Shown here: in pieces, positions 6,717 to 42,793 of the stretch
How positions within the stretch are numbered: position 1 is the stretch's first letter
Layout: every line of letters begins with the position of its first letter
From: an uncultured Clostridia bacterium
GTDB lineage: Bacteria; Bacillota; Clostridia; Oscillospirales; Acutalibacteraceae
Assembly: GCA_944384875.1 (NCBI GenBank)
Contig: CALWVA010000001.1
Coordinates: 1-42,793, forward strand
Reading direction: 5' to 3'
DNA length: 42,793 nt
The notes under the pieces: generated by a model
The model's database searches: none
What the model was told of the DNA's origin: nothing
Seen by the model: only the letters and a program-made list of their open reading frames with translations
Program-made: the position numbers and the translations under genes

Positions 6717-9707
6717 ATGGCAGATCAACATGACAAGCTGTATCCAAACGCCCCCTTTTCGGTGGACGATATTTTAAATGAAGTGCGGCTGATGCGTCAG
6801 CAACAAAAAGAACATCCGTCTGCGCCCCCGGCGTTCGGGCAGCATGCGCTGACGCCAGACGAAATCGTGAAAAGCGTACATAAATCCGACCGGCAGAATC
6901 TCCGGGCGGAGCATCAGCAAAACACAGGGCGTTCGCAGTCTGCTTCATCCCAACCGGCGGCTGCGCCCCGCCAAGAGACGGCGGAAGATCGCACCATGGT
7001 GTTCGACCGCCCGCAAACGGCGGGTCATACCGCTGCGCAGGATACCAGAATGCAACAGCCAACCGCTGAGATTCCGGCTGTTCGGTCGGCTGATCCGGCC
7101 CCGGTGATCCGGTCGGCCTCTGACCGCCCGGCAGCCAAAGCGGCCGACATCTATTCTGACACGGCCGTTCGGCAGAAACAGGAACCATCCAGACCGCAGC
7201 CGCCGGTTGCCAAATCCGCGGCTCCGGCAGAACAGCCTGCCGCCTCAAAAGATATTTTGTCTGACTTTCTGTCAAAAACCACCGACAGCCACTATAAGCC
7301 CGGCGGTTCACAAGAGGCAAAAAAACAGATCGACATGCTGTTTGGTGAAGAAGCGGGCGGCGATACGCTGGTAAACCCGTTTTCAAAAAAACGCCACCGT
7401 GCGCCGAATGTGTTGACGCCGGAGGAAATTTTGGGCTCTACGATGGAAATCAATGCGCTCAAAGAGCAACCGCCGACAGAAGCAGCCTCGCATCCGTCGG
7501 CATCCAAACCGTCTGGCGATGCGTCTACGAATAAAGAAGAATTTTTTTCAAAAATTATAGATAAGGCTGCGCCGGAACAGGGCGTTCCCACGCAGCGTGC
7601 AACAGCAACGCCGACGCGCCGGGATGTTTCGGCGCGTGCGGAAAACGCAGTTGCCCAGCAACCGGAGCAGTCGGTTCATGCGTCGCAACAGTCGGAGGAT
7701 CTGCCGCTGCAATCGCAGATTGCGCAGAAGCTGCGTGAGGCGGACGATGCCTTTTCGCTGGATATTTTAAGCAGCGCGCAACCGAAACAGACGACTGCGC
7801 CGGAACCGCCGGTTGCGCAAACGCCGGCCGAATCGCTGCCGGAGGTTGTGGCGACCAAAACCCGGCCGTCTTCGCGGGTGTTGGACGATCTGGACGTGAA
7901 TGAGGACGCGCTGGTGGAGAAAATACAGCAGCAGGCACAGGAAAATGAAGAAGATACTGCTTTTGAAGAGGATGAAATCGACGATTACCGAACCATCAAA
8001 GATGCAGAGGCGGTACGTCTGGATCTGGATTACCGCAGCGCGCAGCTTTCCCGCAAACTAACGTTTACTGCCATTGCGACAATATTGCTGCTGGCGTTGA
8101 CGCTGCTTCCTGCGGCGGGCGTTACGTTACCCGATTTTATTTCGCCTTCGGCCGGCACTTACGGTTATCTGATTCTCAACGCGCTGTTTTTTGCAGTGGT
8201 GCTGGTGACCAACCTGCCCGGCATTTTCCGGGGCTTTTTCAGTATCTTCCGACTGCGGCCGGATGTAGATGCTGCCACCGGCGTGGCGGCGTTGGCCGCT
8301 ACGGCGCATCTGGCTTATCTGTTTACCAATACGGATCTTGCGTCTAATGGCGCGGTTTATACCGCGGTGGCGGGCGTCGGGCTGGTATTGAATCTGATCG
8401 GGAAACAGGCGCTGTTATCCAGAGTGAAGGGCAATCTGAATCTGGTGGCGACCAACGGCGTCAAACAGAGCAGCTTTCTGGTAGACGTACAGCAGGCCGC
8501 GGCAATCGCCGGGGAGGATGAGCTGGGCGTGCCGGTATTGTGCTGCCGGAAGAGCGTAATCAACCTGCGCAATTATCTGCACAATTCATTTTGTGAGGAT
8601 CCGTCGGATAAAGTGGCCCAGACGCTGTCTCCCATTGGCCTGGCGGCTGCGCTGATCGTGTTTTTTGTAAGCTGGCTGGTAACGGCTGATCTTCCTGTGG
8701 CGGTGGGTTATCTGGCGGCGATTGCGGCGGTGGCTGTTCCGGCGGCGTCGCTGCTCTCGACCAATGTCCCGCTGCTGCGTGCGACCAGGCATTTGCGGGA
8801 ACTGGGCGGTATGCTGTCCGGCTATAACGCGGTGGATACCTTTTCACAGACCGATTGCGTGGTGTTAGACAGCGAAGACGTGTTCCCTTCCGGTTCCATT
8901 GATTTGGTGAGCCTGAAGGCGCTGGGCGGCGCGCAGGTAGACAACGTGATTCTTTATGCCGCTGCGCTGACTATTTCGGCAGGCGGTTGTCTGGCCGATG
9001 TATTCGACCGGATGATCGAGGGCCGGCGTAAACTGTTGCCGCCGGCACATGATATCCTGTATACAGACGGCGCCGGCATCACCGGAACCGTCAGCGGCAG
9101 GCAGGTGCAGATCGGTAACCGCACGCTTTTGGAAAATGCCGGTGTGTTTGAGTTGCCGGATCCCGAATTTGAGCGCAAACTGCTGCGCAGCGGCAACCAT
9201 CCGCTGTATCTGGCGGTAGACGGCGAACTGGCCGGGCTGTTTATCTTAAAATATACAACGCCGGACGACGAGCTGGTAGAGCGGATCGGTGATCTGGTAG
9301 ACGCCGGCGTTGGCATTTATATTAAGACTAACGATCCGAATATCACAGAAAAGCTGATTGCCAATTTGTTTTATATCCCGGCAGAATCGGTGGCGATTCT
9401 GCCCGCCGATGCGGTAGAGGCTTATAATGCCGTTACTGTGCCCAGTGAAAACGGCAGTTCGTTGTTGGCAGATCAAAACTCTGCCGCGGCCTTCGCGGCG
9501 TCTATTACAGCATGTAAAAAGCTGCGTAAAAAGATGCTGCTGGGAATCGTCGTGCAGACCATCTGCACCGTCTTAGCGCTGTTGGCCGCGCTGTTTTTCG
9601 CGTTTACCGGCGGCGCCGGTTGGCTGCAGCCGCACTGGCTGCTGGCCTACCTGCTTGGCAGCGCGGTGCTGGTATTGCTTTTGCCGGCTTTTATTCGTGT
9701 CAAATAA
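6717..9707 (+). CDS. Membrane protein: long disordered N-terminus plus a degenerate (probably inactive) P1B-type ATPase-like body
   Basis: 996-aa ORF with GAAAGGA upstream. Residues ~20-440 are low-complexity P/A/Q/S/T/E-rich. They are followed by ~8 hydrophobic helices and a region collinear with the heavy-metal ATPase P/N domains (VQIGNRTLLENAGV, LYLAVDGELAGLFILKYT). The catalytic motifs are replaced; see findings. Confidence 0.8.
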   Translation: MADQHDKLYPNAPFSVDDILNEVRLMRQQQKEHPSAPPAFGQHALTPDEIVKSVHKSDRQNLRAEHQQNTGRSQSASSQPAAAPRQETAEDRTMVFDRPQTAGHTAAQDTRMQQPTAEIPAVRSADPAPVIRSASDRPAAKAADIYSDTAVRQKQEPSRPQPPVAKSAAPAEQPAASKDILSDFLSKTTDSHYKPGGSQEAKKQIDMLFGEEAGGDTLVNPFSKKRHRAPNVLTPEEILGSTMEINALKEQPPTEAASHPSASKPSGDASTNKEEFFSKIIDKAAPEQGVPTQRATATPTRRDVSARAENAVAQQPEQSVHASQQSEDLPLQSQIAQKLREADDAFSLDILSSAQPKQTTAPEPPVAQTPAESLPEVVATKTRPSSRVLDDLDVNEDALVEKIQQQAQENEEDTAFEEDEIDDYRTIKDAEAVRLDLDYRSAQLSRKLTFTAIATILLLALTLLPAAGVTLPDFISPSAGTYGYLILNALFFAVVLVTNLPGIFRGFFSIFRLRPDVDAATGVAALAATAHLAYLFTNTDLASNGAVYTAVAGVGLVLNLIGKQALLSRVKGNLNLVATNGVKQSSFLVDVQQAAAIAGEDELGVPVLCCRKSVINLRNYLHNSFCEDPSDKVAQTLSPIGLAAALIVFFVSWLVTADLPVAVGYLAAIAAVAVPAASLLSTNVPLLRATRHLRELGGMLSGYNAVDTFSQTDCVVLDSEDVFPSGSIDLVSLKALGGAQVDNVILYAAALTISAGGCLADVFDRMIEGRRKLLPPAHDILYTDGAGITGTVSGRQVQIGNRTLLENAGVFELPDPEFERKLLRSGNHPLYLAVDGELAGLFILKYTTPDDELVERIGDLVDAGVGIYIKTNDPNITEKLIANLFYIPAESVAILPADAVEAYNAVTVPSENGSSLLADQNSAAAFAASITACKKLRKKMLLGIVVQTICTVLALLAALFFAFTGGAGWLQPHWLLAYLLGSAVLVLLLPAFIRVK

Positions 9708-9734: not shown

Positions 9735-10640
9735 ATGCCGACACAACCGCAAAAACACCATGCCGACTATGCGCAAAAACGCCGGCGTGGGCTGAAAATA
9801 ACCAAACGGCTGATCATTTTGGTTTGGCTGTTGTTGTTCGTGCTGCTGGGGCTTGGAGCCTGGGCAGTGGTTCGGCAGATTACCGCCATTGATCAAAGTA
9901 ACCAGCATCTTGAACAGTCGCAGACAGAAGTCTTCAGACCCAATGTACTGTTGGTTTTAGAGGATGATGTGGATAATATGTCCCGCTATGTATTCACATT
10001 GCTGTGTTTTAACACACAAGACGGTAAGATTTCGGCGACGGTACTGCCGGAAAATATGGATACGCTGGTCGGCCAGAAGCAGGCGACTTTACAGCAGCAG
10101 TTTGTCTATGGCGGCCCACAACAGGCGAGACTGGCGGTGCAAACGGCTTTTTCCATTACGGTTGACCGATATTTTTGCTGCAGTTTTTCTACGCTGGAGT
10201 CGTTATTAGACGAGCTGGGCGCAGTGGAATTTACTGTGCCGGAGGACTTATATTATCAAAATGAGGATGGGACAGTGCTGTGTGATCTGACGGCAGGGGA
10301 ACAGTCGTTGAACAGCCAGCAGGTGCTGCAGTTTTTGCGCTATCCGGGATGGAGCAGCGAGACACAGGCGTCTGAACAGCGGGGTGCGCTGGCCGGCGCG
10401 CTGATTAACCAGGCGGCGACAACGGCAGTGCAGCAACAGATGACTGCGCTGTATGAGCAGATTGTCAACAGCGCGCAAACCGATGTGTCTTTGGTAGATC
10501 TCAATCAGCTGGCCGGGCAGTATAGCGCCTTTACCGGCAGTGCGCCAGCCAGTGTGGTAACTATTACCGGATCTGCTACAGATGAGGTGTTTATACCGGA
10601 CGATACTGCGAAAGCAGCGGTTTTGGCGCAATTTAAATAA
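9735..10640 (+). CDS. LytR-CpsA-Psr (LCP)-fold membrane-anchored protein, catalytic residues apparently degenerate
   Basis: Basic cytoplasmic tail and one TM helix (LIILVWLLLFVLLGLGAWAVV), then LCP-like blocks: NVLLVLED..., YGGPQQARLAVQTAFSITVDRYFCCSFSTLESLLDELGAVEFTVP and LNSQQVLQFLRY. An AGGGGGA SD precedes the start. Confidence 0.65.
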   Translation: MPTQPQKHHADYAQKRRRGLKITKRLIILVWLLLFVLLGLGAWAVVRQITAIDQSNQHLEQSQTEVFRPNVLLVLEDDVDNMSRYVFTLLCFNTQDGKISATVLPENMDTLVGQKQATLQQQFVYGGPQQARLAVQTAFSITVDRYFCCSFSTLESLLDELGAVEFTVPEDLYYQNEDGTVLCDLTAGEQSLNSQQVLQFLRYPGWSSETQASEQRGALAGALINQAATTAVQQQMTALYEQIVNSAQTDVSLVDLNQLAGQYSAFTGSAPASVVTITGSATDEVFIPDDTAKAAVLAQFK

Positions 10641-25371: not shown

Positions 25372-26268
25372 ATGAATGATTTTCTGGCAACGCTGATCAA
25401 CGGCATCAGTCTTGGCAGCATGTATGCGCTGATTGCGCTGGGCTATACCATGGTTTATGGCATCGCTAAAATGCTGAATTTCGCGCATGGAGATATTATT
25501 ATGGTGGGCGGCATCACCACATTTACGGTGATGCAATATACCAACATGCCGCCGTGGGTTGCGGTGCTGGCGGCGGTGGTCGTCTGCACGGTGCTGGGCG
25601 TGGTGATTGAAAAGGTGGCCTATAAACCGCTGCGCGGGGTTTCATCTCTGACGGTGTTGATCACCGCCATCGGCGTCAGCTATCTGTTGCAGAATGTGGC
25701 GCTGTTGACTTTTGGAACAGAAAATAAAAGCTATTCGTTTTCGTTTCTGACCGCGCTGAACTGGCAGATCAACGAACATCTGATCATCCAGGGGTCTACG
25801 ATTGTGAACGTGGTGATTATGCTGGTGATTATGGTGGCGCTGTTGCTGTTCGTTCGTTTTACCAAACAGGGCAAGGCGATGCGCGCCGTATCAGAAGACA
25901 ACGGCGCCGCGCAGCTGATGGGCATTAACGTCAACGCCACCATTTCCCTGACGTTTGCCATTGGCTCGGCGCTGGCCGGAATCGCCGGCTTTATGTATAT
26001 CGGCACATATTCTCAGATCGGCGCATATGCCGGAACCATGCCTGGCATCAAGGCGTTTACAGCGGCGGTGTTCGGCGGTATCGGCTCGATTCCCGGGGCA
26101 ATGATCGGTGGTATTGCGTTGGGAATCATTGAACAGTTCAGTAAATCCATTTTAGCGCAGTTCCAGCTGAGCGCACTGGCAGATGCCATTGTGTTTGTTA
26201 TTTTGATTTTGGTGCTGCTAATTAAACCTACCGGGTTGTTAGGACGGCAAATCAAGGAAAAAGTCTGA
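25372..26268 (+). CDS. livH: Branched-chain amino acid ABC transporter permease
   Basis: 298-aa polytopic protein. LINGISLGSMYALIALGYTMVYGIAKMLNFAHGD is the LivH-type N-terminus. Confidence 0.92.
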   Translation: MNDFLATLINGISLGSMYALIALGYTMVYGIAKMLNFAHGDIIMVGGITTFTVMQYTNMPPWVAVLAAVVVCTVLGVVIEKVAYKPLRGVSSLTVLITAIGVSYLLQNVALLTFGTENKSYSFSFLTALNWQINEHLIIQGSTIVNVVIMLVIMVALLLFVRFTKQGKAMRAVSEDNGAAQLMGINVNATISLTFAIGSALAGIAGFMYIGTYSQIGAYAGTMPGIKAFTAAVFGGIGSIPGAMIGGIALGIIEQFSKSILAQFQLSALADAIVFVILILVLLIKPTGLLGRQIKEKV

Positions 26269-26341
26269 CCGTCTCGACTTTGTATTTAAACAGGAGAGCG
26301 GCGCCCGCTGTCGCCGCGTTTTGAAAGGAATGATCGTCAAC

Positions 26342-27454
26342 ATGGCGTTGGCTGCAAAATGGAAAAATATGCGCGCCTCCACCCGCAAAAAGCTGTTGAT
26401 GCTGGGTGGAATGCTGGTTGTGTTTGCAATCCTTCAGCTGCTGCTGTCTCTGGATTTGCTGAGCAACCAGATTCAAAGCTGGCTGGTGCCATGCTGTTAT
26501 AATATTATTCTGGCGGTGTCGTTAAACCTGACTGTCGGTATCTTGGGCGAGCTGTCGCTGGGACACGCCGGGTTTATGTGTGTGGGCGCGTTTGTAGGCG
26601 CGTTTGTTTCAAAATATTTTGATACGGTCAATCCCGACCTGAGCGCCTGGATCCGGCTGCCGCTGGCGCTGGTGCTGGGCGGGATCGTCGCCGGGTTGTT
26701 CGGGCTGATCGTGGGCGTGCCGGTGTTGCGGCTGAACGGCGACTATCTTGCGATTGTGACGCTGGCTTTTGGTGAGATCATCTGGAACCTGTTTAACGTC
26801 ACTCGGGTTTCATTGGATAACGGCAGTTTTAGAGTGGGGGTCGGCGGCACCGGCCTCAGCAATTTGTCTGCCGACGCGGTGCCGCTGGTAGACGGTTCGC
26901 TGGGAATCACCAGCGTTCCCAGACTTGGAAAAGGCGGGTTTGCCATCGCGTTTGTGCTGGCCTTTTTAACGGTGCTGCTGGTGATGAATCTGATTCATTC
27001 CAGAACCGGCCGGGCGATCAAAGCTATTCGCGACAACCGCATCGCCGCTGAAAGCATCGGAATCAATATCACAAAATATAAATTGATTGCGCTGGTAGTT
27101 TCCGCGTTTTTGGCTGGGATTGCCGGTGTGCTGTATGCGCACAATGCCGGGCAGGCCGTGGCCACCCAGGCGGATTATGGTTATGTCATGAGCATCAATA
27201 TTTTGGTGTTTGTCGTGTTGGGCGGCATGGGATCCACCCTGGGCTCAATGATTGCGGCAGTGGTGTTGACCATTCTGCCGGAATGGCTGCGGTTCTTAAG
27301 CGATTACAGAATGCTGATTTACGCCGTGGTGCTGATTGGGATGATGCTGGTCAACGGTTCGCCGGCAATCAAAGCGGTTGTAGACCGGGGCCGGCAGGTG
27401 GTTAAACAGAAAATCAAAAATCTGTTTATCAGACAGCCTAAAAAGGAGGCGTAA
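26342..27454 (+). CDS. livM: Branched-chain amino acid ABC transporter permease
   Basis: LivM-type core (NLTVGILGELSLGHAGFMCVGAF..., ...LRLNGDYLAIVTLAFGEII...). The start is uncertain: ATG 26342, ATG 26330 or TTG 26321. Confidence 0.9.
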   Translation: MALAAKWKNMRASTRKKLLMLGGMLVVFAILQLLLSLDLLSNQIQSWLVPCCYNIILAVSLNLTVGILGELSLGHAGFMCVGAFVGAFVSKYFDTVNPDLSAWIRLPLALVLGGIVAGLFGLIVGVPVLRLNGDYLAIVTLAFGEIIWNLFNVTRVSLDNGSFRVGVGGTGLSNLSADAVPLVDGSLGITSVPRLGKGGFAIAFVLAFLTVLLVMNLIHSRTGRAIKAIRDNRIAAESIGINITKYKLIALVVSAFLAGIAGVLYAHNAGQAVATQADYGYVMSINILVFVVLGGMGSTLGSMIAAVVLTILPEWLRFLSDYRMLIYAVVLIGMMLVNGSPAIKAVVDRGRQVVKQKIKNLFIRQPKKEA

Positions 27455-27457
27455 CGG

Positions 27458-28216
27458 ATGGCTTTATTGGATGTACAGAATTTAAGCATCCGTTTCGGCG
27501 GGCTGCAGGCGGTAGACCAGTTTCATATTGCGGTAGAACAGGGCCAGCTTTACGGGTTGATCGGCCCGAACGGCGCGGGAAAAACAACGGTGTTCAATAT
27601 GCTGACCGGGGTCTATAAGCCCACGAGCGGCACCATTTTGTTGGACGGCGTGGATATTACCGGAAAAAACAATGTGCAGATCAGCAAAATGGGTATTGCG
27701 CGCACCTTTCAAAATATTCGGCTGTTCAATGAGATGTCTGTGTTGGACAATGTCAAAGTGGGGCTGCACAACCAGGTAAAATGCGGGCTGTTTACCAATA
27801 TTTTGCGTCTGCCCGGTGATTATAAAACAGAAAAAAAGATGAACGAGAAGGCGATGCAGCTGCTGGAGGTATTCGGCCTGCAGGACGATGTGAAGCTTCG
27901 GGCGCGAAATCTGCCCTATGGCAAGCAGCGCAAGCTGGAGATCGCCCGGGCGCTGGCGACCAATCCGCGTTTGCTGCTGCTGGACGAGCCGGCCGCAGGG
28001 ATGAATCCCAATGAAACGGCGGAGCTGATGCAGACCATCCGTCTGATTCGGGAACGGTTCCAGATGACAATTCTGCTGATTGAGCATGATATGCGGCTGG
28101 TCAGCGGCATCTGCGAACGGTTGACGGTTTTGAATTTTGGGTCGGTGTTGTGTGAAGGTGAGACTTCCGCGGTGCTGCGCGACCCGGAGGTTGTCAAGGC
28201 CTATCTGGGCGAATAA
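27458..28216 (+). CDS. livG: Branched-chain amino acid ABC transporter ATP-binding protein
   Basis: Walker A GPNGAGKTT, signature LPYGKQRKLEIARAL, Walker B LLLLDEPAAGMN, plus the LivG-specific C-terminal ...PEVVKAYLGE. Strong AAGGAGG SD. Confidence 0.94.
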   Translation: MALLDVQNLSIRFGGLQAVDQFHIAVEQGQLYGLIGPNGAGKTTVFNMLTGVYKPTSGTILLDGVDITGKNNVQISKMGIARTFQNIRLFNEMSVLDNVKVGLHNQVKCGLFTNILRLPGDYKTEKKMNEKAMQLLEVFGLQDDVKLRARNLPYGKQRKLEIARALATNPRLLLLDEPAAGMNPNETAELMQTIRLIRERFQMTILLIEHDMRLVSGICERLTVLNFGSVLCEGETSAVLRDPEVVKAYLGE

Positions 28217-28258
28217 ACGCCGGCGTGGCGGATCACAGAGGATGGAGGTCATTGCATC

Positions 28259-28969
28259 ATGGCGATGCTGGAAATTGAAAATATCTATGTCAGCTATGGC
28301 ATGATAAATGCGATCAGGGGCGTTTCGTTCACTGTGGATCGCGGAGAGATCATCGCGCTGATCGGCGCCAATGGCGCGGGTAAGACCACAACGCTGCATA
28401 CCATCAGTGGGTTACTGCGCCCTAAATCTGGCAGTATCCGGTTTAACGGGACAGAGATTACGCGCGTTGCGCCCCATAAGATCGTGTCCATGGGTATCGC
28501 ACAGGTGCCGGAGGGACGCCGGGTGTTCTCACAGCTGACGGTGTTGGATAATTTAAAAATGGGGGCGTATATCCGCCGTGACCCAAAAGAGATTGTCCAT
28601 TCGTTGCAGACGGTATATGGGTGGTTCCCGCGGCTGAAAGAGCGGCAAAATCAGATCGCGGGTACGTTGTCCGGCGGCGAACAGCAGATGCTGGCGATGG
28701 GACGTGCGCTGATGTCTCATCCGCAGATCATTTTGATGGATGAACCGTCGATGGGGCTGTCGCCGTTGCTGGTGACCGAGGTGTTTAACATTATTGAAGA
28801 GATCTGTAAAGCCGGCACTACGGTGCTGCTGGTAGAGCAAAATGCAAAAAAAGCCCTCACCATCGCAGATCGGGCCTATGTGTTGGAAACCGGGACCATC
28901 GCGCTGGAAGGGAAAGCCGCCGACCTGATGAACAACGACCGGGTGAAAAAAGCATATCTGGGTGAGTGA
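28259..28969 (+). CDS. livF: Branched-chain amino acid ABC transporter ATP-binding protein
   Basis: Walker A GANGAGKTT, signature LSGGEQQMLAMGRAL, Walker B ILMDEPSMGLSP, C-terminal VKKAYLGE. Confidence 0.94.
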   Translation: MAMLEIENIYVSYGMINAIRGVSFTVDRGEIIALIGANGAGKTTTLHTISGLLRPKSGSIRFNGTEITRVAPHKIVSMGIAQVPEGRRVFSQLTVLDNLKMGAYIRRDPKEIVHSLQTVYGWFPRLKERQNQIAGTLSGGEQQMLAMGRALMSHPQIILMDEPSMGLSPLLVTEVFNIIEEICKAGTTVLLVEQNAKKALTIADRAYVLETGTIALEGKAADLMNNDRVKKAYLGE

Positions 28970-28993
28970 CGATCTGGATCGATTACAAAAAAG

Positions 28994-29026
28994 AAATACC
29001 CGCCGGCAATTGCCGGCGGGTATTTT
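28994..29026 (+). terminator. Rho-independent terminator of livHMGF
   Basis: AAATACCCGCCGGCA-AT-TGCCGGCGGGTATTT palindrome followed by TA. Confidence 0.85.
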
Positions 29027-29107
29027 AATGTGTAGATTTGAATGCCATGCATATATTTTACTGGATATACAGTAAAACAACAGCATCGACAGATATCCTT
29101 TTATACA

Positions 29108-29140
29108 AACCGCCGGGCAGAATCGTTCTGCCCGGCGGTT
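29108..29140. terminator. Hairpin terminator, probably serving glgA (minus strand)
   Basis: AACCGCCGGGCAGAA-TCG-TTCTGCCCGGCGGTT forms a 15-bp stem. On the minus strand it is followed by TGTATAAAAGG, a weak U-tract that contains no run of T. It lies about 160 nt past the glgA stop. Confidence 0.5.
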
Positions 29141-29301
29141 GGTTGTTTCAGCATATCGGCCATCACACGCTCTAATTAAAAACGGTTGTAATACTGATCT
29201 TGCAACGGCGGTCAAATTACAAAGGGTATGCATCTGGTTTGTCCGCTCTACCGAAAGCGGCGTAATATTGCAGTGATGCTGGTTTGTATCATGCGATGCA
29301 T

Positions 29302-31982: not shown

Positions 31983-32702
31983 ATGGTCTTGAACGGGTTT
32001 AAACGGCTGTGGCTGCAGCTGCAGCGTTTGTTGGCAAGGATGGGTCTGTCCCGTGGCGTTTATTATATTAACGGATCGCAGACGCTGCCGCCGCCGTTAT
32101 CCAAAGAGGAGGAGCAGGCGGCCATCGCCCGGTATGCCGCCGGGGATGGGCAGGCAAAAGAACTGCTGATTACGCATAATCTGCGGTTGGTGGTGTATAT
32201 ATCCCGAAAATTTGACGCTGTGGGCGCGAATATCGAAGATTTGATCTCTATCGGGACAATCGGGCTGATTAAGGCGGTGAATACTTTCCGGCCGGATAAA
32301 AATATCAAACTGGCTACCTACGCTTCCCGCTGTATTGAAAATGAGATTTTGATGTATCTGCGTAAAACCGGCCAGCAAAAGGGCGAGGTATCCATCGACG
32401 AGCCGCTGAATGTGGACTGGGACGGCAACGAACTGCTGTTATCTGACATATTGGGCAGCGACGCCGACGAGGTTAACCGTGATGTGGAATTGCAGGATGA
32501 ACGCAGCGTGGTGGCGCAGCTGGTGCGGGCGCTGCCCGCCCGGGAACGGCAGATCATGCAGATGCGGTTTGGGTTTAACGGTTATGCCGAGCATACGCAA
32601 AAGGATGTAGCACAGCAGCTGGGGATCTCCCAGAGCTATATTTCCAGGCTGGAGAAAAAGATCATTCACCGGTTGAGAAAAGAATTAGAAAGAATTGGAT
32701 GA
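31983..32702 (+). CDS. sigE: RNA polymerase sporulation sigma factor E (pro-sigma-E)
   Basis: Near-collinear with B. subtilis SigE as I remember it: [108 protein letters not shown]. The start is ATG 31983 (only 1 nt after AGGAGG) or TTG 31989. Confidence 0.95.
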
Positions 32703-32707
32703 AAAAG

Positions 32708-32736
32708 TTGACAGACGTGTAAATATATGTTAAAAT
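32708..32736 (+). promoter_or_regulatory. Near-consensus sigma-A promoter immediately after the sigE stop codon
   Basis: TTGACA (32708-32713), a 17-nt spacer, then TGtTAAAAT (hexamer 32731-32736). No terminator separates it from sigE. Confidence 0.55.
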
Positions 32737-32762
32737 ACAAAAAATATACGCAAGCGCAGGAA

Positions 32763-32948
32763 ATGCTTTTCAATATATGCGCTGTTGTGGGCGGCTGGTT
32801 TGTGCGGCTGCTGAAATCGGAGGAAGCGGTTGTTATCCCGGAGAGCATTGTCGTAGAACACGCTGATGCGGTGGATGATTTGCAGAGTGGATTATACAGC
32901 GCTTCGCAGCTGGGAAAAGCAGTGAAATCAGGGAAATTCTATGGATAA
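32763..32948 (+). CDS. Hypothetical small protein (61 aa); may instead be non-coding
   Basis: This is the only ORF downstream of the 32708 promoter. The ORF-track ATG at 32727 lies inside the promoter, so I trimmed to ATG 32763. The SD (AGGAA) is poor and too close. I see no recognisable family. Confidence 0.3.
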   Translation: MLFNICAVVGGWFVRLLKSEEAVVIPESIVVEHADAVDDLQSGLYSASQLGKAVKSGKFYG

Positions 32949-33162
32949 AAACCTTAAAATATTTGGGTTGCCCGTGGGGTTGACAGTGTAAGTTCTTAAA
33001 AAGCTGTATAGCAATATACTACTATTTTCGGGATTGACCCACGCAGAAAATGGGGTTATAACGTGTAAATCGGCTGAATGGATAAAAATTACAGTGCATT
33101 TTGCACAAAAGTAAGCCCACATTTTCTATGCCGGTTAGGCCAACTATTTAAAATGAAAACAA

Positions 33163-33191
33163 TTGACAAGCTCGGATTATTCGAGTACAAT
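33163..33191 (+). promoter_or_regulatory. Candidate sigma-A promoter of the surface-protein gene
   Basis: TTGACA (33163-33168), a 17-nt spacer, then TACAAT (33186-33191), about 70 nt upstream of ATG 33264. Confidence 0.5.
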
Positions 33192-33263
33192 AAAAGCAAC
33201 ACCTGCTTGCTGGGGTTCTTGGTGCAGGTTAATGATAAGTTATACAAAGGAGAGATTCAGGAC

Positions 33264-36200
33264 ATGAAAGTGACAAAAAAAGTTGTCAGCATGTTGCTGG
33301 CTGTCTGCTTGCTGGCCAGTATGTTTGCCGTCGGCGCGGTAGTATCGTCGGCAACTGGTGGAGCAGAGCAGACTGCGGCGCCTGCCTATGAGTCCCTGGG
33401 TGTTTACAAGAACACGACATGGGGTGGCGGCGCACCGGAAGGCGGCTTCACAGCGACACAGAATGAAGACGGAACAGTTACCTATTCGTCTACAGCAGAT
33501 ACGGCACAGTATCAGCTGCTTGACTGGGGTAATCAGGACGCATCGGTGATTACGGATGACGCAGTTGGCCTGCGGTTCAAACTGCGGGTTGACTCGGTTG
33601 GCAAAACCGATGTTCCGCTGGAAGGCTATTTCGTAGGAACCAGCTATAGCGATACCTGGCCGACTTGCCGTTTTGACATCACAGCGGCGGTTGGCGAGAC
33701 TGCTGAATATGTGATTCTGTTTAAGGACTTTGCCAACGGCGCTGGTATCACGCTTGACACGGTGAGAGCGTTCACCCATACACAGTTCAGAGTACGTGCG
33801 CAGGGTCATACAGATTCCAATCAGACCAATCTGGGCGGCATGACCTATACACTGTCTGCGATTGAAGCTGTTAAAGTTGCAGAAGAGCCGGTTGAGCCGG
33901 AAGTTTCTTATGAGTCCCTGGGTGTTTACAAAAACACGACATGGGGCGGCGGGCAGCCGGAAGGCGGCTTCACAGCGACACAGAATGAAGACGGAACAGT
34001 TACCTATTCGTCTACAGCAGATACGGCACAGTATCAGCTGCTTGACTGGGGTAATCAGGACGCATCGGTGATTACGGATGACGCAGTTGGCCTGCGGTTC
34101 AAACTGCGGGTTGACTCGGTTGGCAAAACCGATGTTCCGCTGGAAGGCTATTTCGTAGGAACCAGCTATAGCGATACCTGGCCGACTTGCCGTTTTGACA
34201 TCACAGCGGCGGTTGGCGAGACTGCTGAATATGTGATTCTGTTTAAGGACTTTGCCAACGGCGCTGGTATCACGCTTGACACGGTGAGAGCGTTCACCCA
34301 TACACAGTTCAGAGTACGTGCGCAGGGTTATGCAGATGACAATCAAATCAATCTGGGCGGCATGACCTATACACTGTCTGCGATTGAAGCTGTTAAAGTT
34401 GCAGAAGAGTCGGTTGAGCCGGAATATGAATCCATTGCTGTTTATAGAAACACCACTTGGGATGGCGGCGCACCGGAAGAGGGCGGCAACAGAGTCATCA
34501 ATGAGGACGGTACAGTGACTGCCACATTTACTGAGGATGCTGCACAGTATCAGCTCTATGACTGGAACCATATGAATGCGGATGCATTAACAGACGATGC
34601 AGTGGGTATCCGGTTTAAGTTACGGATTGATTCGGTTGGCAAAACTGATGTTCCGCTGGAAGCTTATTTTGTAGCAACAGATTATGGTACTTATCAAACG
34701 CAGGCAGTTCCGCTTACTGCAGCGGTTGGTGAGACCGGCGAATATGTAATGCTGTTTGAGAACTTTGCGGTCAGTGGAGAAGTTGTAGGGGTAACACCTG
34801 CATGGCTGAAGACCGCAAGCCATACACAGTTCAGAGTACGTGCGCAGGGTCATACAGATGCCAATCAGACCAATCTGGGCGGCATTACCTACACATTGTC
34901 GGATATTGAAACCATCAGAGTGGCTGGATCTGCTCCTGATACGACTGCGGAATCAACTGAACCTGAACCCACTACAACTGAAGATCTTTCAAAATACACC
35001 AGTGTATCTTTGTTGAATTGGGAATTAGGCGGCCGTAACTATTCCAGCTCCTGGGGCCAGGGTATGGAATATGATGGCGAAGGCGGCGGTTGGAACGATA
35101 CCGAAGGAACTGCCTTTGACAGAGGTATTTTAACTTCCGATGAAGATTATAATATGATTATCGATACCTTTGGTAACAACATCGGTAAAGTTCAGCAACA
35201 GTTCTGGGCTGACCAAAGCACGAATGCACAGGATTGCTATGTGGCTGCATATGCAGCGCTGAACGGCGATACAGCTACTGACGGCAAAAAGATTCAGTTT
35301 ACAGTAACCAATACCGGTACACAACCGTTCCTGGTCATGGGCAGCTGGTATGTACCTGGCGCTTCTACAATTAATTTTGGTAATGATCAGAAGACCAGTC
35401 CGGAAGCTATTGTGATTGAGGCTGGCGAGAGCAGAGTGATCACACTGGATCTGCCTGCGGGTCAAACTTTGGCGGAGCCGAGCGCAAATGGTTTATCTGC
35501 GGAATTACACTTTATTGCTTACGAGTGGGGCAATAGTGCAATTAGTGGTACAATGAGTCCGATCAGCCTGTTATATCTGGCACCGGAAACGACAACCACT
35601 GAAACTTCCACAACTGAGTCTTCCACAACGGAGACTACTACAGAGACTACTACAGAGACTACTACTGAGCCTCCCGAGACTACTACTGAAACTACCACTG
35701 AGCCTCCCGAGACTACTACTGAAACTACCACTGAGCCTCCCGAGACTACTACTATTGACATCGATGAAAATGATGTTGTAGTGCAGGCGGACACCGTATA
35801 CGGAATGCCTGGCGAAAGAGTAGAAGTTCCGGTGAGATTGACCCAGGCGCCGAAGCTGTGGGCAATGGGTTGGTTTGCTGAATTTGACAACACCAAGCTG
35901 ACATTGGTGGATGTCACCGGCGGCGATGTGTTCAATGAAGAAACCAACGAATGGGTGAAACCTTCTGAGGATCTGATCAGCCGTTCCAACGAGAGAGGCA
36001 GCTATAAGTTCAGCGCGCAGTATAACGGTTCTGACGAAGTAAACGTCACCGGCTTGCTGTGCACGCTGGTGTTCGAAGTTAATGCAGACGCCGTAGACGG
36101 AGATGTCTATGAGATCGCGATCACTGAGTCCATTGGTGATATCATCACTGAGGACGAGACAGATCTGCCGTCCGTGCTGTTGCCGGGTGCAGTTGTTGTT

Positions 36201-36488
36201 GGTGAAGAACAGACTACGACAACTGAGCCGACTACAACCACTGAGCCGACTACAACTGAGTCTACAACACCGGCTGAGACTACTGCAGATGATACCACTG
36301 CTACAGGTGATATTACAGTTGCGGGTGATACTACTACAACCACCACGACTTCCGGTATTGGTGGCGGCAGCATCGGTGGCGGCATCGGCGGCACTACTCC
36401 TCCTATGGGTGCAGTAGCAATGCCCGTTGGCGCATTGATCCTGGCTGCAGCGGCAGGTGTGGTCCTGTTCAAATCTAAAAAACGGTAA
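33264..36488 (+). CDS. Cell-surface modular protein (scaffoldin-like). Order: signal peptide, 3 x ~172-aa repeat, unknown ~200-aa module, Thr/Pro/Glu linker, cohesin-like module, Thr/Gly linker, C-terminal TM anchor
   Basis: An AAAGGAGAG SD lies 9 nt before ATG 33264. The signal peptide is MKVTKKVVSMLLAVCLLASMFAVGAVVSSATG. The repeats and linkers are visible directly in the sequence. The C-terminus ...MGAVAMPVGALILAAAAGVVLFKSKKR is a hydrophobic helix with a basic tail. The ORF-track start at 33078 precedes the predicted promoter. Confidence 0.9.
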   Translation: MKVTKKVVSMLLAVCLLASMFAVGAVVSSATGGAEQTAAPAYESLGVYKNTTWGGGAPEGGFTATQNEDGTVTYSSTADTAQYQLLDWGNQDASVITDDAVGLRFKLRVDSVGKTDVPLEGYFVGTSYSDTWPTCRFDITAAVGETAEYVILFKDFANGAGITLDTVRAFTHTQFRVRAQGHTDSNQTNLGGMTYTLSAIEAVKVAEEPVEPEVSYESLGVYKNTTWGGGQPEGGFTATQNEDGTVTYSSTADTAQYQLLDWGNQDASVITDDAVGLRFKLRVDSVGKTDVPLEGYFVGTSYSDTWPTCRFDITAAVGETAEYVILFKDFANGAGITLDTVRAFTHTQFRVRAQGYADDNQINLGGMTYTLSAIEAVKVAEESVEPEYESIAVYRNTTWDGGAPEEGGNRVINEDGTVTATFTEDAAQYQLYDWNHMNADALTDDAVGIRFKLRIDSVGKTDVPLEAYFVATDYGTYQTQAVPLTAAVGETGEYVMLFENFAVSGEVVGVTPAWLKTASHTQFRVRAQGHTDANQTNLGGITYTLSDIETIRVAGSAPDTTAESTEPEPTTTEDLSKYTSVSLLNWELGGRNYSSSWGQGMEYDGEGGGWNDTEGTAFDRGILTSDEDYNMIIDTFGNNIGKVQQQFWADQSTNAQDCYVAAYAALNGDTATDGKKIQFTVTNTGTQPFLVMGSWYVPGASTINFGNDQKTSPEAIVIEAGESRVITLDLPAGQTLAEPSANGLSAELHFIAYEWGNSAISGTMSPISLLYLAPETTTTETSTTESSTTETTTETTTETTTEPPETTTETTTEPPETTTETTTEPPETTTIDIDENDVVVQADTVYGMPGERVEVPVRLTQAPKLWAMGWFAEFDNTKLTLVDVTGGDVFNEETNEWVKPSEDLISRSNERGSYKFSAQYNGSDEVNVTGLLCTLVFEVNADAVDGDVYEIAITESIGDIITEDETDLPSVLLPGAVVVGEEQTTTTEPTTTTEPTTTESTTPAETTADDTTATGDITVAGDTTTTTTTSGIGGGSIGGGIGGTTPPMGAVAMPVGALILAAAAGVVLFKSKKR
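33387..34925 (+). repeat. Three tandem in-frame coding repeats (522, 516 and ~500 bp)
   Basis: Copies 1 (33387-33908) and 2 (33909-34424) are almost identical at the DNA level, with about 6 aa differences in ~172. Copy 3 (34425-~34925) is clearly homologous but diverged (YES[LI][GA]VY[KR]NTTW.GG.PE...DDAVG[LI]RFKLR[VI]DSVGKTDVPLE.YFV...HTQFRVRAQG...NLGG[MI]TYTLS.IE). Confidence 0.95.
35667..35753 (+). repeat. 33-bp tandem repeat (2.6 copies) encoding an EPPETTTETTT linker
   Basis: GAGCCTCCCGAGACTACTACTGAAACTACCACT occurs at 35667, 35700 and 35733 (the last copy is partial), inside a longer Thr/Glu/Ser-rich stretch. Confidence 0.9.
35775..36200 (+). other. Cohesin-like module within the surface protein
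   Basis: VVVQADTVYGMPGERVEVPVRLTQ...GWFAEFDNTKLTLVDVTGGDVF...GSYKFSAQYNGSDEVNVTGLLCTLVFEVNADAVDGDVYEIAI...LPGAVVVG follows the cohesin pattern ([VI].[VI]......PG..V.VPV......G......[YF]D...L....V..G.......G.[IF].F........G.L..[IL].F.V......G.Y.I........G.[IV].V). Recognition is by eye only. Confidence 0.6.
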
Positions 36489-36567: not shown

Positions 36568-36604
36568 AAAACTGCCATGAGAGTCATTCTCTCATGGCAG
36601 TTTT
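36568..36604 (+). terminator. Rho-independent terminator of the surface-protein gene
   Basis: AAAACTGCCATGAGAG-TCATT-CTCTCATGGCAGTTTT forms a 16-bp perfect stem that includes the U-tract. A weaker hairpin, CCGGTC-TTACA-GACCGG (36522-36538), precedes it. Confidence 0.85.
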
Positions 36605-37167: not shown

Positions 37168-38328
37168 ATGAACAAATTAGCCAAGTTGTTGTGTGCAGGG
37201 CTGGCTGCCGTGTTAATGGCAGGAAGTTTCGCATCCTGCGGCGGCACAGAAGATTCTGCGACTGTGTTGAAGATTGGCGGTATCGGTCCGCTGACCGGCC
37301 AGACAGCGTCTTATGGTACAGCCGTTGAAAACGGCGCGCAGTTGGCAGTTGATGAAATCAACGCTGCAGGCGGCGTAAACGGGATTCAGTTGGAACTGAA
37401 TTTTCAGGATGATGAAAATAACGCGCAAAAGGCGATTACCGCCTATGGTCTGTTAAAAGATGAAGGTTGTAAGATTTTGATGGGCACGGTTACCAGCGCG
37501 CCCTGTCTGGCGGTTAAAGATTTAACTTATGAAGATAATATGTTCCAATTGACACCGTCCGGCTCGGCGGTAGACTGCACAAAATATGACAATACGTTCC
37601 GGATCTGCTTTAGTGATGATAACCAGGGCGCTGCGTCTGCGCAGTATATTTTCGATAAACAACTGGCTTCAAAAATCGCTGTGATTTATGACAGCTCAGA
37701 TCCTTATTCTTCGGGTATTTACAGAACCTTTAAGGAGAAAGCGGCCGAACTGGGGTTGGAAATCGTCAGTGAGCAGGCGTTTACCTCCAGCAATAACACC
37801 GATTTTTCTGTTGCGGTGCAGCAGGTCAAATCCAGCGGCGCAGAACTGGTGTTTTTACCGATTTATTATCAGCAGGCCGCGCTGATCCTGCAACAGGCGA
37901 ACAGCGCCGGACTGGAGACGCAGTATTTTGGCTGTGACGGATTGGATAGTATTGTTCAACAGCTGGGCAATGACAGTCAATTGGCTGAAGGTGTGATGCT
38001 GTTAACGCCGTTTGCGGCGGATGCCAGCGATGAGAAGTCGCAAACCTTCACCGCCGCTTATAAAGCTAAATATAATAATGAGATCCCCAATCAGTTTGCG
38101 GCGGACGCTTATGATGCGATTTATACCATCAAGGCGGCGATGGAGCAGGCAGGTATCGACGACGCTTCTATTTCTGTGTCTGATCTGTGTGAAAAGCTGA
38201 AAGCGGCAATGACACAAATCACAGTTGATGGCGTAACCGGAACCATGACCTGGGATGAAAACGGCGAACCTACCAAAGATCCAAAGGGTATGTATATTAA
38301 AGACGGTAGTTATACCGCGATGGATTAA
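37168..38328 (+). CDS. Branched-chain amino acid ABC transporter substrate-binding lipoprotein (LivJ/LivK family, Peripla_BP_6)
   Basis: Lipobox LMAGSFASC|GG, then LKIGGIGPLTGQTASYGTAVENGAQLAVDEINAAGGVNG..., the typical family N-terminus. A GAGAGGGAAAC SD precedes the start. Confidence 0.92.
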   Translation: MNKLAKLLCAGLAAVLMAGSFASCGGTEDSATVLKIGGIGPLTGQTASYGTAVENGAQLAVDEINAAGGVNGIQLELNFQDDENNAQKAITAYGLLKDEGCKILMGTVTSAPCLAVKDLTYEDNMFQLTPSGSAVDCTKYDNTFRICFSDDNQGAASAQYIFDKQLASKIAVIYDSSDPYSSGIYRTFKEKAAELGLEIVSEQAFTSSNNTDFSVAVQQVKSSGAELVFLPIYYQQAALILQQANSAGLETQYFGCDGLDSIVQQLGNDSQLAEGVMLLTPFAADASDEKSQTFTAAYKAKYNNEIPNQFAADAYDAIYTIKAAMEQAGIDDASISVSDLCEKLKAAMTQITVDGVTGTMTWDENGEPTKDPKGMYIKDGSYTAMD

Positions 38329-42431: not shown

Positions 42432-42793
42432 ATGTATCATATCAAACAGATGGTCCAGAGCGGGAAAAACAGTAAACAACCGCTGCATCAGCTGGCGGCG
42501 CCGGCGTTTGTTTTTAAGCCTGATGCGGAAGAGCATATCGTCAATCTATATCCCGAAATCCGCTATCAGCGGATTATCGGATTTGGCAGCGCGCTGACGG
42601 ACGCGGCGGCCTGCAATTACGCCAAGATGCGCGAGCAGACCCGACAGGCGTTCATCCGCGCGTTTTTTGATCCGGCGCAGGGATTGGGATATACGCTGTG
42701 CCGGCTGCATATCAACTCCTGTGATTTTTCGGCGCAGGAATACACCTATACGGCTGACGGCGATATGTCGCTGGACAGCTTTTCGGTGGCGCA
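42432..42793 (+). CDS. Glycoside hydrolase family 30 (glucosylceramidase/O-glycosyl hydrolase-like), 5' partial; runs off the window
   Basis: My own translation from ATG 42432 gives MYHIKQMVQSGKNSKQPLHQLAAPAFVFKPDAEEHIVNLYPEIRYQRIIGFGSALTDAAACNYAKMREQTRQAFIRAFFDPAQGLGYTLCRLHINSCDFSAQEYTYT.... [QR].I.GFG.A.TDAAA and G.GY...R..I.S.DFS are GH30 N-terminal blocks. The frame is open to the end of the window and is absent from the ORF track, presumably because there is no stop codon. Confidence 0.78.
   Translation, partial: MYHIKQMVQSGKNSKQPLHQLAAPAFVFKPDAEEHIVNLYPEIRYQRIIGFGSALTDAAACNYAKMREQTRQAFIRAFFDPAQGLGYTLCRLHINSCDFSAQEYTYTADGDMSLDSFSVA

Follow-up and report, generated by a model that had tools for sequence, protein, structure and literature searches.

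A cohesin-bearing surface protein with rare CBM-like repeats, probably an anchoring scaffoldin, from an uncultured chicken-gut Clostridia bacterium

Contig CALWVA010000001.1 (assembly GCA_944384875.1) of an uncultured Clostridia bacterium encodes a secreted protein of 1074 amino acids (aa) on the forward strand at 33264-36488 of its first 42,793 nucleotides, the stretch analyzed here and called the window. What kind of protein is this, and does it matter that its gene follows spoIIGA and sigE, where the initial annotation expected sigG? The preferred reading, with a probability of roughly 60%, is that the protein is a monovalent anchoring scaffoldin at the cell surface, and also a substrate adhesin, of an uncultured spore-forming chicken-gut bacterium. 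Among the matches listed, the closest relatives of the source organism are Oscillospirales-type Clostridia. The position of the gene has no special meaning.

The protein is built of a signal peptide, three repeats (R1, R2, and R3), a fourth module (module 4), a Thr/Glu/Pro linker, a cohesin, a Thr-rich then Gly-rich linker, and a hydrophobic C-terminus with a basic tail. Every part of this layout was found where the initial annotation had placed it. According to the published definition, an anchoring scaffoldin of the transmembrane-helix type has one cohesin or more, a signal peptide, and such a helix at its C-terminus (PMC11557425), and this protein combines a cohesin with hydrophobic segments predicted to serve in both of the other roles.

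The cohesin core spans aa 839-959 (35778-36140), and the whole module covers about 35754-36209. When the module is scanned in isolation (aa 830-983), its match to PF00963 reaches 47 bits, where the gathering score is 24.1, with E = 3.9e-12, and aligns to profile positions 2-120 of 139. The orthologue P0001 reaches 39.9 bits with the same family at full length. All 11-12 sequence matches of the module in the PDB are cohesins. The best is 4uyp, the type-I cohesin of A. cellulolyticus ScaC (E = 1.6e-5 with a profile), and others are C. thermocellum OlpC (3ul4), R. flavefaciens ScaC (5lxv), and cohesins of C. acetobutylicum and of C. thermocellum CipA; entries 6kg8 and 1aoh are also among them. 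The best of these relatives, 4uyp and 3ul4, are type-I cohesins of anchoring proteins. By these profile matches, membership in the cohesin family is real. A profile search had been set by the initial annotation as the test of its cohesin-like module at about 35775-36200, and the module is upheld on sequence evidence, above the Pfam threshold and with solved type-I cohesins as its nearest structures.

In scans of the full-length protein, Pfam yields no cohesin, and Pfam and NCBIfam together return noise only; separate scans of the modules were needed. The Thr-rich linkers and a start codon called at the wrong place explain why the cohesin is missed both there and in precomputed public annotations. 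Proteins of this kind are therefore probably undercounted when cohesin-bearing proteins are surveyed. A word-indexed search with the cohesin profile and a scan of metagenome contigs with the cohesin each returned no match.

The repeats belong to a family that is very small. R1 (aa 42-208, 33387-33887), R3 (aa 388-556, 34425-34931), and module 4 match no family in Pfam or NCBIfam at E <= 10, apart from noise. An exhaustive HMMER search of 1.84 billion representative proteins with a profile of eight repeat units recovers ten proteins at E <= 1e-3 and six at E <= 1e-10. Of the word-indexed searches, that with the full-length protein gave four matches and was swamped by linker words, and that with the repeat profile added one new match; a metagenome-contig scan with the repeat gave none.

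The other family members consist of an N-terminal module, one or two repeats, a Thr linker, and then a type-I dockerin. The N-terminal module is a polysaccharide deacetylase of carbohydrate esterase family 4 (CE4) in P0003, P0004, and P0007, a GDSL/SGNH esterase in P0010, and a relative of module 4 in P0002 and P0006. The repeat units borne by scaffoldins are 55-87% identical among themselves and 43-53% identical to those borne by enzymes. One contig with an enzyme-borne repeat was sampled from a human gut (Hadza), and a gene of glycoside hydrolase family 28 (GH28) lies nearby. The setting of the enzyme-borne repeats suggests de-esterification of hemicellulose or pectin, although such a specificity would be deduced from context.

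Two side observations concern these relatives. P0008 (424 aa) has a signal peptide and a truncated repeat unit fused to AAA-type ATPase-like sequence, and is probably a chimeric or mis-assembled metagenome contig, not a real architecture. In organisms with enzyme-borne repeats, a small cluster recurs (L083, 539-12419, and L092, 501-6223) that contains an AraC regulator, the CE4-repeat-dockerin protein, a PrsA-like foldase (SurA_N_3 and Rotamase_2, both sub-threshold), and a dockerin protein of about 610 aa. In L083 this last protein is a right-handed beta-helix, and further dockerin proteins are encoded there, one of only 266 aa.

The predicted fold of the repeat is all-beta. AlphaFold2, run on the alignment, models it with a predicted local distance difference test (pLDDT) of 90.1 and a predicted template modeling (pTM) score of 0.86. 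Against the PDB, Foldseek matches this model to jelly-rolls of the carbohydrate-binding module (CBM) type, with E around 1e-4 and about 10% identity. The nearest compact matches are CBM11 domains (1v0a, 6r31, and 6r3m) with template modeling (TM) scores of 0.54-0.57, followed by the CBM-like domains of GH50 agarases, CBM16, CBM4, CBM29, CBM30, and a laminarin-binding CBM. The CBM-like beta-sandwich proposed in the initial annotation is borne out by this model and its matches. On the modeled fold class and the position of the repeat in enzymes, it would be a type-B CBM that is a member of no described family. Six positions, numbered within the R3 unit, are invariant in 12 repeat units (W12, Y42, S70, L78, G102, and R137), and the aromatic residues and the arginine among them are candidate ligand contacts.

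Module 4 (aa 573-775, 34980-35588), the further module of about 200 aa in the initial annotation, is predicted to be a second beta-sandwich and matches no family. Its relatives stand at the N-terminus of two dockerin proteins, P0002 and P0006, with 25-29% identity and 42 invariant columns. The AlphaFold2 model finds weak, generic matches to jelly-rolls, lectins, and CBMs in structure comparison (TM 0.35-0.44). By profile-profile comparison, the repeat, module 4, and the alternative N-terminal module of P0001 show no mutual relationship.

The scaffoldin thus has both of its accessory module families in common with type-I dockerin proteins, and this sharing would be the signature of one cohesin-dockerin system. 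The dockerin proteins that bear these families are present in other, related organisms, and it is in this sense that the dockerin partners foreseen in the initial annotation are supported. The target is likely an acetylated glycan of the plant cell wall, such as xylan or pectin, because the repeat otherwise occurs only between carbohydrate esterases (CE4 and GDSL) or module-4-like domains and type-I dockerins.

In the proposed mechanism, a sigma-A-type promoter would give rise to a monocistronic mRNA, and a Sec signal peptide would direct the protein to export. The C-terminal hydrophobic helix, with KSKKR as a stop-transfer tail, would hold the C-terminus in the membrane, and the Gly-rich and Thr-rich linkers, probably O-glycosylated, would carry the modules through and beyond the cell wall. 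There the single type-I-like cohesin would capture one dockerin-bearing protein at a time, while the three CBM-like jelly-roll repeats and module 4 would bind polysaccharide and so hold the cell and its docked enzyme on the substrate.

Several points weigh against this reading. The CBM fold matches have TM scores of only about 0.55 at about 10% identity, and the jelly-roll fold is also found in proteins that do not bind sugars. The model of module 4 is of moderate confidence (pLDDT 73). There is no dockerin signature in the 42.8-kb window. The C-terminal tail is equally compatible with a sorting signal. Lastly, the fragments in one chicken-gut metatranscriptome are of low depth and come from the spacers as well as from the gene, with contigs covering 32691-33196; this evidence of transcription is weak and too thin to claim expression, and DNA carry-over is possible.

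The tail bears on the strongest alternative. A Kyte-Doolittle scan of the 1074-aa protein finds two hydrophobic segments only, aa 3-32 and aa 1046-1071. The second contains the helix AVAMPVGALILAAAAGVVLF (aa 1050-1069), which is followed by the basic tail KSKKR (aa 1070-1074; together 36411-36485, Kyte-Doolittle maximum 2.41), as the initial annotation had described. Helix and tail are identical or nearly so in all alleles. Directly before the helix, where a sortase motif would be expected, lies the pentapeptide TPPMG (aa 1045-1049, 36396-36410), which is TPDMG in P0001. A pattern search finds no LPxTG, [SP]PxTG, LAxTG, NPxTN, or NVxTG anywhere in the protein, and Pfam scans of the full-length sequence and of the modules find no SLH domain. 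The initial annotation was therefore right that both LPxTG and SLH are absent. Its further statement, that a transmembrane helix holds the protein rather than a sortase, is less settled, as the geometry of the tail matches a cell-wall sorting signal in full.

The alternative is that the protein and its function are the same but that a sortase links it to peptidoglycan through a non-canonical TPxMG motif, with the helix and KSKKR cleaved off. The three-part arrangement is exact: a pentapeptide, 20 hydrophobic residues, and a basic tail. Large surface open reading frames (ORFs) in related metagenome-assembled genomes (MAGs) end in AQTGD, PATGD, or SPQTGD, a hydrophobic stretch, and then a basic tail, KKK, at the same spacing, so that these relatives have xPxTG where this protein has TPxMG. 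Residues T, P, M, G, and A are kept between the two orthologues and the middle residue varies (P or D), like the x in xPxTG; this pattern rests on two diverged sequences and carries little weight. In Ruminococcus, R. bromii, and Limousia, all anchoring scaffoldins depend on a sortase. Against a sortase stands the methionine in place of threonine at the scissile position, where threonine is conserved in the recognized classes of sortase motif. TIGR01167, the profile for LPXTG cell-wall sorting signals, scores 13.1 bits against a cutoff of 15.9, and its profile positions 13-34 align to the hydrophobic and basic part only. No sortase gene is seen in the window. On this balance a plain transmembrane anchor is favored as the probable mode of attachment, and the non-canonical sortase signal is possible but doubtful.

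A second alternative concerns the cohesin. The protein could be an adhesin outside any cellulosome, through which the cell attaches to a glycan or to the surface of a host, with the cohesin-like module as a structural beta-sandwich or stalk that binds no dockerin. Cohesin-like modules are widespread outside cellulosomes. This one is divergent enough to escape the full-length Pfam scan and the precomputed annotations, and its PDB matches lie at E values of 1e-4 to 1e-5; no dockerin from the same genome was seen, the window having none. Against this, the protein has both accessory module families in common with bona fide type-I dockerin proteins of the only other organisms in which these families occur, and the cohesin is the best-conserved part of the protein between alleles, at 82% identity. 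An adhesin of this kind is unlikely, and the reading as an anchoring scaffoldin is kept.

The third alternative arises from the locus. Upstream of the cohesin gene are spoIIGA (PF03419, E = 5.5e-61) and a gene for a SigE-type sigma factor, and a 561-bp spacer with a 73-aa ORF separates sigE from the cohesin gene. The window holds no second sigma homologue. For comparison, the best 80 SigE loci among the matches listed were taken from species-representative genomes, and 63 of them extend at least 2.5 kb downstream of sigE. The SigE relatives among these matches are 60-72% identical and come mostly from gut MAGs of Acutalibacteraceae, Oscillospiraceae, and Ruminococcaceae. A sigma gene follows sigE on the same strand within 1.5 kb in 5 of the 63 loci (three of the five are Bacilli) and on the opposite strand in six; the remaining 52 have none within 1.5 kb. 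At the related loci among the matches listed, sigE shares synteny with none of the genes that lie downstream of it in the window, and no relative of the cohesin protein is encoded. The order sigE-sigG is not the norm in this lineage, so the position of the gene after sigE is without special meaning, and the significance that the initial annotation had attached to it falls away. A sporulation-linked role, in which the protein would depend on sigE or stand in functionally for sigG at its usual place, is suggested by its position 561 bp downstream of spoIIGA-sigE and is very improbable, given its own consensus sigma-A-type promoter and terminator, the 52 of 63 loci without a nearby sigma gene, the absence of anything conserved downstream of sigE, the lack of a relative of the protein at those loci, and an architecture that is that of a vegetative surface protein.

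The limits of the gene are set by its start codon and its transcription signals. The coding sequence (CDS) is read from the ATG at 33264, with the ribosome-binding site AAAGGAGAG (33246-33254) 9 nt before it. A sigma-A-type promoter, TTGACA-17-TACAAT, lies at 33163-33191 and agrees with the consensus at 11 of 12 positions, and an intrinsic terminator occupies 36568-36604, with a stem of 16-17 bp, a loop of 5 nt, and a T-run. Gene callers on the public contigs chose the ATG at 33153, which gives a product of 1111 aa with no Pfam domain recorded. The longer ORF, from 33078 or 33153, was ruled out: the promoter falls inside it, and a TAA stop (…VNDQL*KGEIQDMRMTKK) breaks the in-frame extension upstream of the start at the orthologous locus L084. 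The start is placed at 33264 for these two reasons and for the ribosome-binding site.

L084 is a 76%-identical allele. Its two promoter hexamers are identical to those of the window, whereas 6 of the 17 spacer bases differ; its terminator stems are identical with one change in the loop, and its ribosome-binding site is kept. Because hexamers and stems are kept between diverged alleles while spacer and loop vary, the comparison argues that promoter and terminator are functional. The spacers on either side of the gene have 41% and 33% GC against 51% in the CDS, which fits an independent transcription unit. Both the promoter and terminator and the AT-rich non-coding flanks had been described in the initial annotation and are found again here. 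An Rfam scan finds a tRNA alone in the window and nothing in the spacers flanking the cohesin gene.

The signal peptide (aa 1-31, 33264-33356) is of the Sec type, with a basic KVTKK, a hydrophobic core (Kyte-Doolittle maximum 2.44 over aa 3-32), and an SSA-T site; cleavage after SSA31 is probable. A lipoprotein signal through LAVC (aa 12-15) was considered and rejected, as valine at -1 would be atypical and the hydrophobic core appears to run on to the SSA site. The mature protein is about 111 kDa with 15% Thr and an acidic pI of 4.05. The Thr/Glu/Pro linker (aa 776-830, 35589-35753) consists of 3.4 copies of a 33-nt tandem unit, one of which is absent in the allele L089. The Thr-rich then Gly-rich linker (aa 983-1043, 36210-36392) is, from its composition, presumed to be a wall-spanning spacer.

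The triple repeat is real and partly recent. The three repeats of about 172 aa in the initial annotation correspond to R1-R3, with a period of 174 aa. R2 (aa 216-382, 33909-34409) is a recent tandem duplicate of R1, to which it is 97% identical in protein and identical at 489 of 501 nt in DNA, and R3 is 62-64% identical to both. A 371-nt unitig common to R1 and R2 has about twice the depth of its flanks in three of four independent chicken-gut runs (23.4 against 12.9-14.4, 14.2 against 7.3-7.5, and 17.2 against 8-9.7). All three repeats are present in 6 of 6 independent ENA metagenome contigs with the same neighborhood. An assembly artifact as the source of the R1/R2 duplication was rejected on the twofold read depth and the six contigs.

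Strain alleles (L085-L090) carry paired substitutions in R1 and R2 (L86F with L260F and D99E with D273E), and in two alleles the C-terminal end of R1, HTDSNQT, has been converted to the YADDNQI of R2. Because the same substitutions appear in both copies and the end of R1 has taken on R2 sequence, the alleles indicate concerted evolution, with ongoing gene conversion between the tandem copies.

More distant alleles differ in their modules. P0001 is an orthologue of 893 aa with 71% identity. Its locus has the promoter, 5' untranslated region, and signal peptide in common with the window (87% nucleotide identity) and, starting at the linker ahead of R3, is colinear with it as far as the terminator (76%). 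Between these parts, an unrelated module of about 160 aa stands in place of R1-R2, and the counterpart of R3 is its sole repeat copy. In addition to the missing linker unit, of 11 aa, L089 has cohesin substitutions and a different downstream gene. From the comparisons with P0001, L089, and read variants, the locus is a cassette kept from promoter to terminator in which the N-terminal binding modules are exchanged and duplicated.

P0001-type reads and half-depth cohesin variants also occur in the chicken-gut runs. In four of these runs, linked variants at about half depth are found in the cohesin at 35909-35960 and 35811, and one loose end reads the P0001-type allele (IQADTVYAKA). Because such linked variants and a P0001-type end occur in the same runs, at least two cohesin alleles or close lineages coexist in the same samples. 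The locus has 65-94% word coverage in metagenomes of chicken gut, poultry dust, air, and faeces, and its exact matches are metagenome contigs only. The gene is present in at least six independent assemblies and in many chicken-gut runs.

The neighborhood is stable in at least five assemblies, in the order mfd, an rlmA-like gene, livHMGF, glgA (on the opposite strand), spoIIGA, sigE, orf73, the cohesin gene, a binding-protein gene, fba, amt, glnB, and a gene of glycoside hydrolase family 30 (GH30). The transporter genes (25372-29300) encode an ATP-binding cassette (ABC) transporter of the branched-chain amino-acid type, with two permeases (BPD_transp_2) and two ABC ATPases. About 8 kb separate these genes from the matching Peripla_BP_6 binding-protein gene (37168-38328), and glgA, spoIIGA-sigE, and the cohesin gene stand in between. 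In L089 an acetyltransferase gene is found downstream of the cohesin gene in place of the binding-protein gene, and thus the region downstream of the terminator varies between strains.

The 561-bp spacer (32703-33160) contains a near-consensus promoter-like site with an extended -10, TTGACA-17-TAAAAT, at 32708-32736. All related contigs have the 73-aa ORF (32727-32948) annotated as a gene, but it has no match in Pfam, NCBIfam, or Rfam. The two cannot both be real, because the ATG of the ORF lies inside the site. At 6717-9707 on the forward strand is a gene for a 996-aa protein that has no Pfam match and a far sub-threshold NCBIfam similarity to heavy-metal P-type ATPases (aa 630-906, 63 bits against cutoffs of at least 346); the protein is possibly a P-type ATPase that has degenerated or diverged strongly. 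It is followed at 9735-10640 by an LCP-family (LytR-CpsA-Psr) glycopolymer transferase. The GH30 gene starts at about 42432 on the forward strand and runs to the end of the window at 42793. Its product is 453 aa in contig L085, too short for a dockerin, and fits a fiber-degrading lifestyle; the GH30 family includes glucuronoxylanases.

Cohesin-dockerin systems of gut bacteria are known for cellulose, resistant starch, and mucin. The locus points to another small system of this type in an uncultured poultry-gut lineage, one whose characteristic modules accompany carbohydrate esterases and not glycoside hydrolases. Provided that the repeat binds a glycan, it would be a new CBM family and might serve as a targeting module for acetylated fiber. 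A broader proposal, taken as a whole, is possible but less likely than not: that the repeat founds a new CBM family shared by an anchored scaffoldin and dockerin-bearing deacetylases and esterases, that these form a small, lineage-restricted, esterase-centered cohesin-dockerin system for acetylated glycans, and that TPxMG with the helix and KSKKR is possibly an unrecognized sorting signal.

Among described modules, the repeat is closest to CBM11, CBM16, and CBM4 (PDB 1v0a, 6r31, 2zex, and 1gui). It is of the same fold class and size (about 170 aa) and, like them, sits between catalytic modules and dockerins in cellulosomal enzymes. Unlike them, it has no Pfam or NCBIfam match, and its distance from them is that of the structural matches given above (about 10% identity, TM about 0.55).

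The architecture of a single cohesin with a transmembrane helix is not new, and the protein is of a known kind. It has been cataloged as the 'nonSLH-anchoring scaffoldin' in H. luporum, C. cibarium, and Lachnoclostridium sp. MSJ-17 (PMC11557425). Those proteins likewise have a signal peptide, one cohesin, and a C-terminal helix presumed to lie in the membrane, and their partners are likewise mostly unknown. Unlike this protein, some of them have type-II cohesins, and none is reported with tandem CBM-like modules (PMC11557425). In the protein described here, a further ~730 aa are made up of putative substrate-binding modules that belong to two families without a name.

Sortase-anchored scaffoldins form a second group for comparison. 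It includes cSca5 of Limousia pullorum, the single-cohesin anchor of a mucinolysome (PMC12997984), Sca2 and Sca5 of R. bromii (PMC12663171), and ScaE of R. flavefaciens and R. champanellensis (PMC12663171, PMC11557425). Like the present protein, these are cell-bound scaffoldins of gut Clostridia with few cohesins and long linkers to the cell, and Limousia also comes from the chicken gut. They have a canonical LPxTG, a covalent link to the wall, and no CBM-like repeats, whereas this protein has TPPMG and the repeats. The cohesin is N-terminal in cSca5, while here it is the module nearest the membrane.

The CipA-type scaffoldins with CBM3 (Acetivibrio thermocellus and Clostridium spp.) also combine a cohesin and a substrate-targeting CBM, here CBM-like, on one non-catalytic polypeptide. 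CipA has many cohesins and one CBM3, and it is attached by a dockerin through a separate anchoring protein. In contrast, this protein has one cohesin, three or four modules other than CBM3, and what is predicted to be its own direct anchor. What is distinctive here is the pairing of two unnamed beta-sandwich families, one of them very rare, CBM-like, and present in three copies, with a non-canonical tail.

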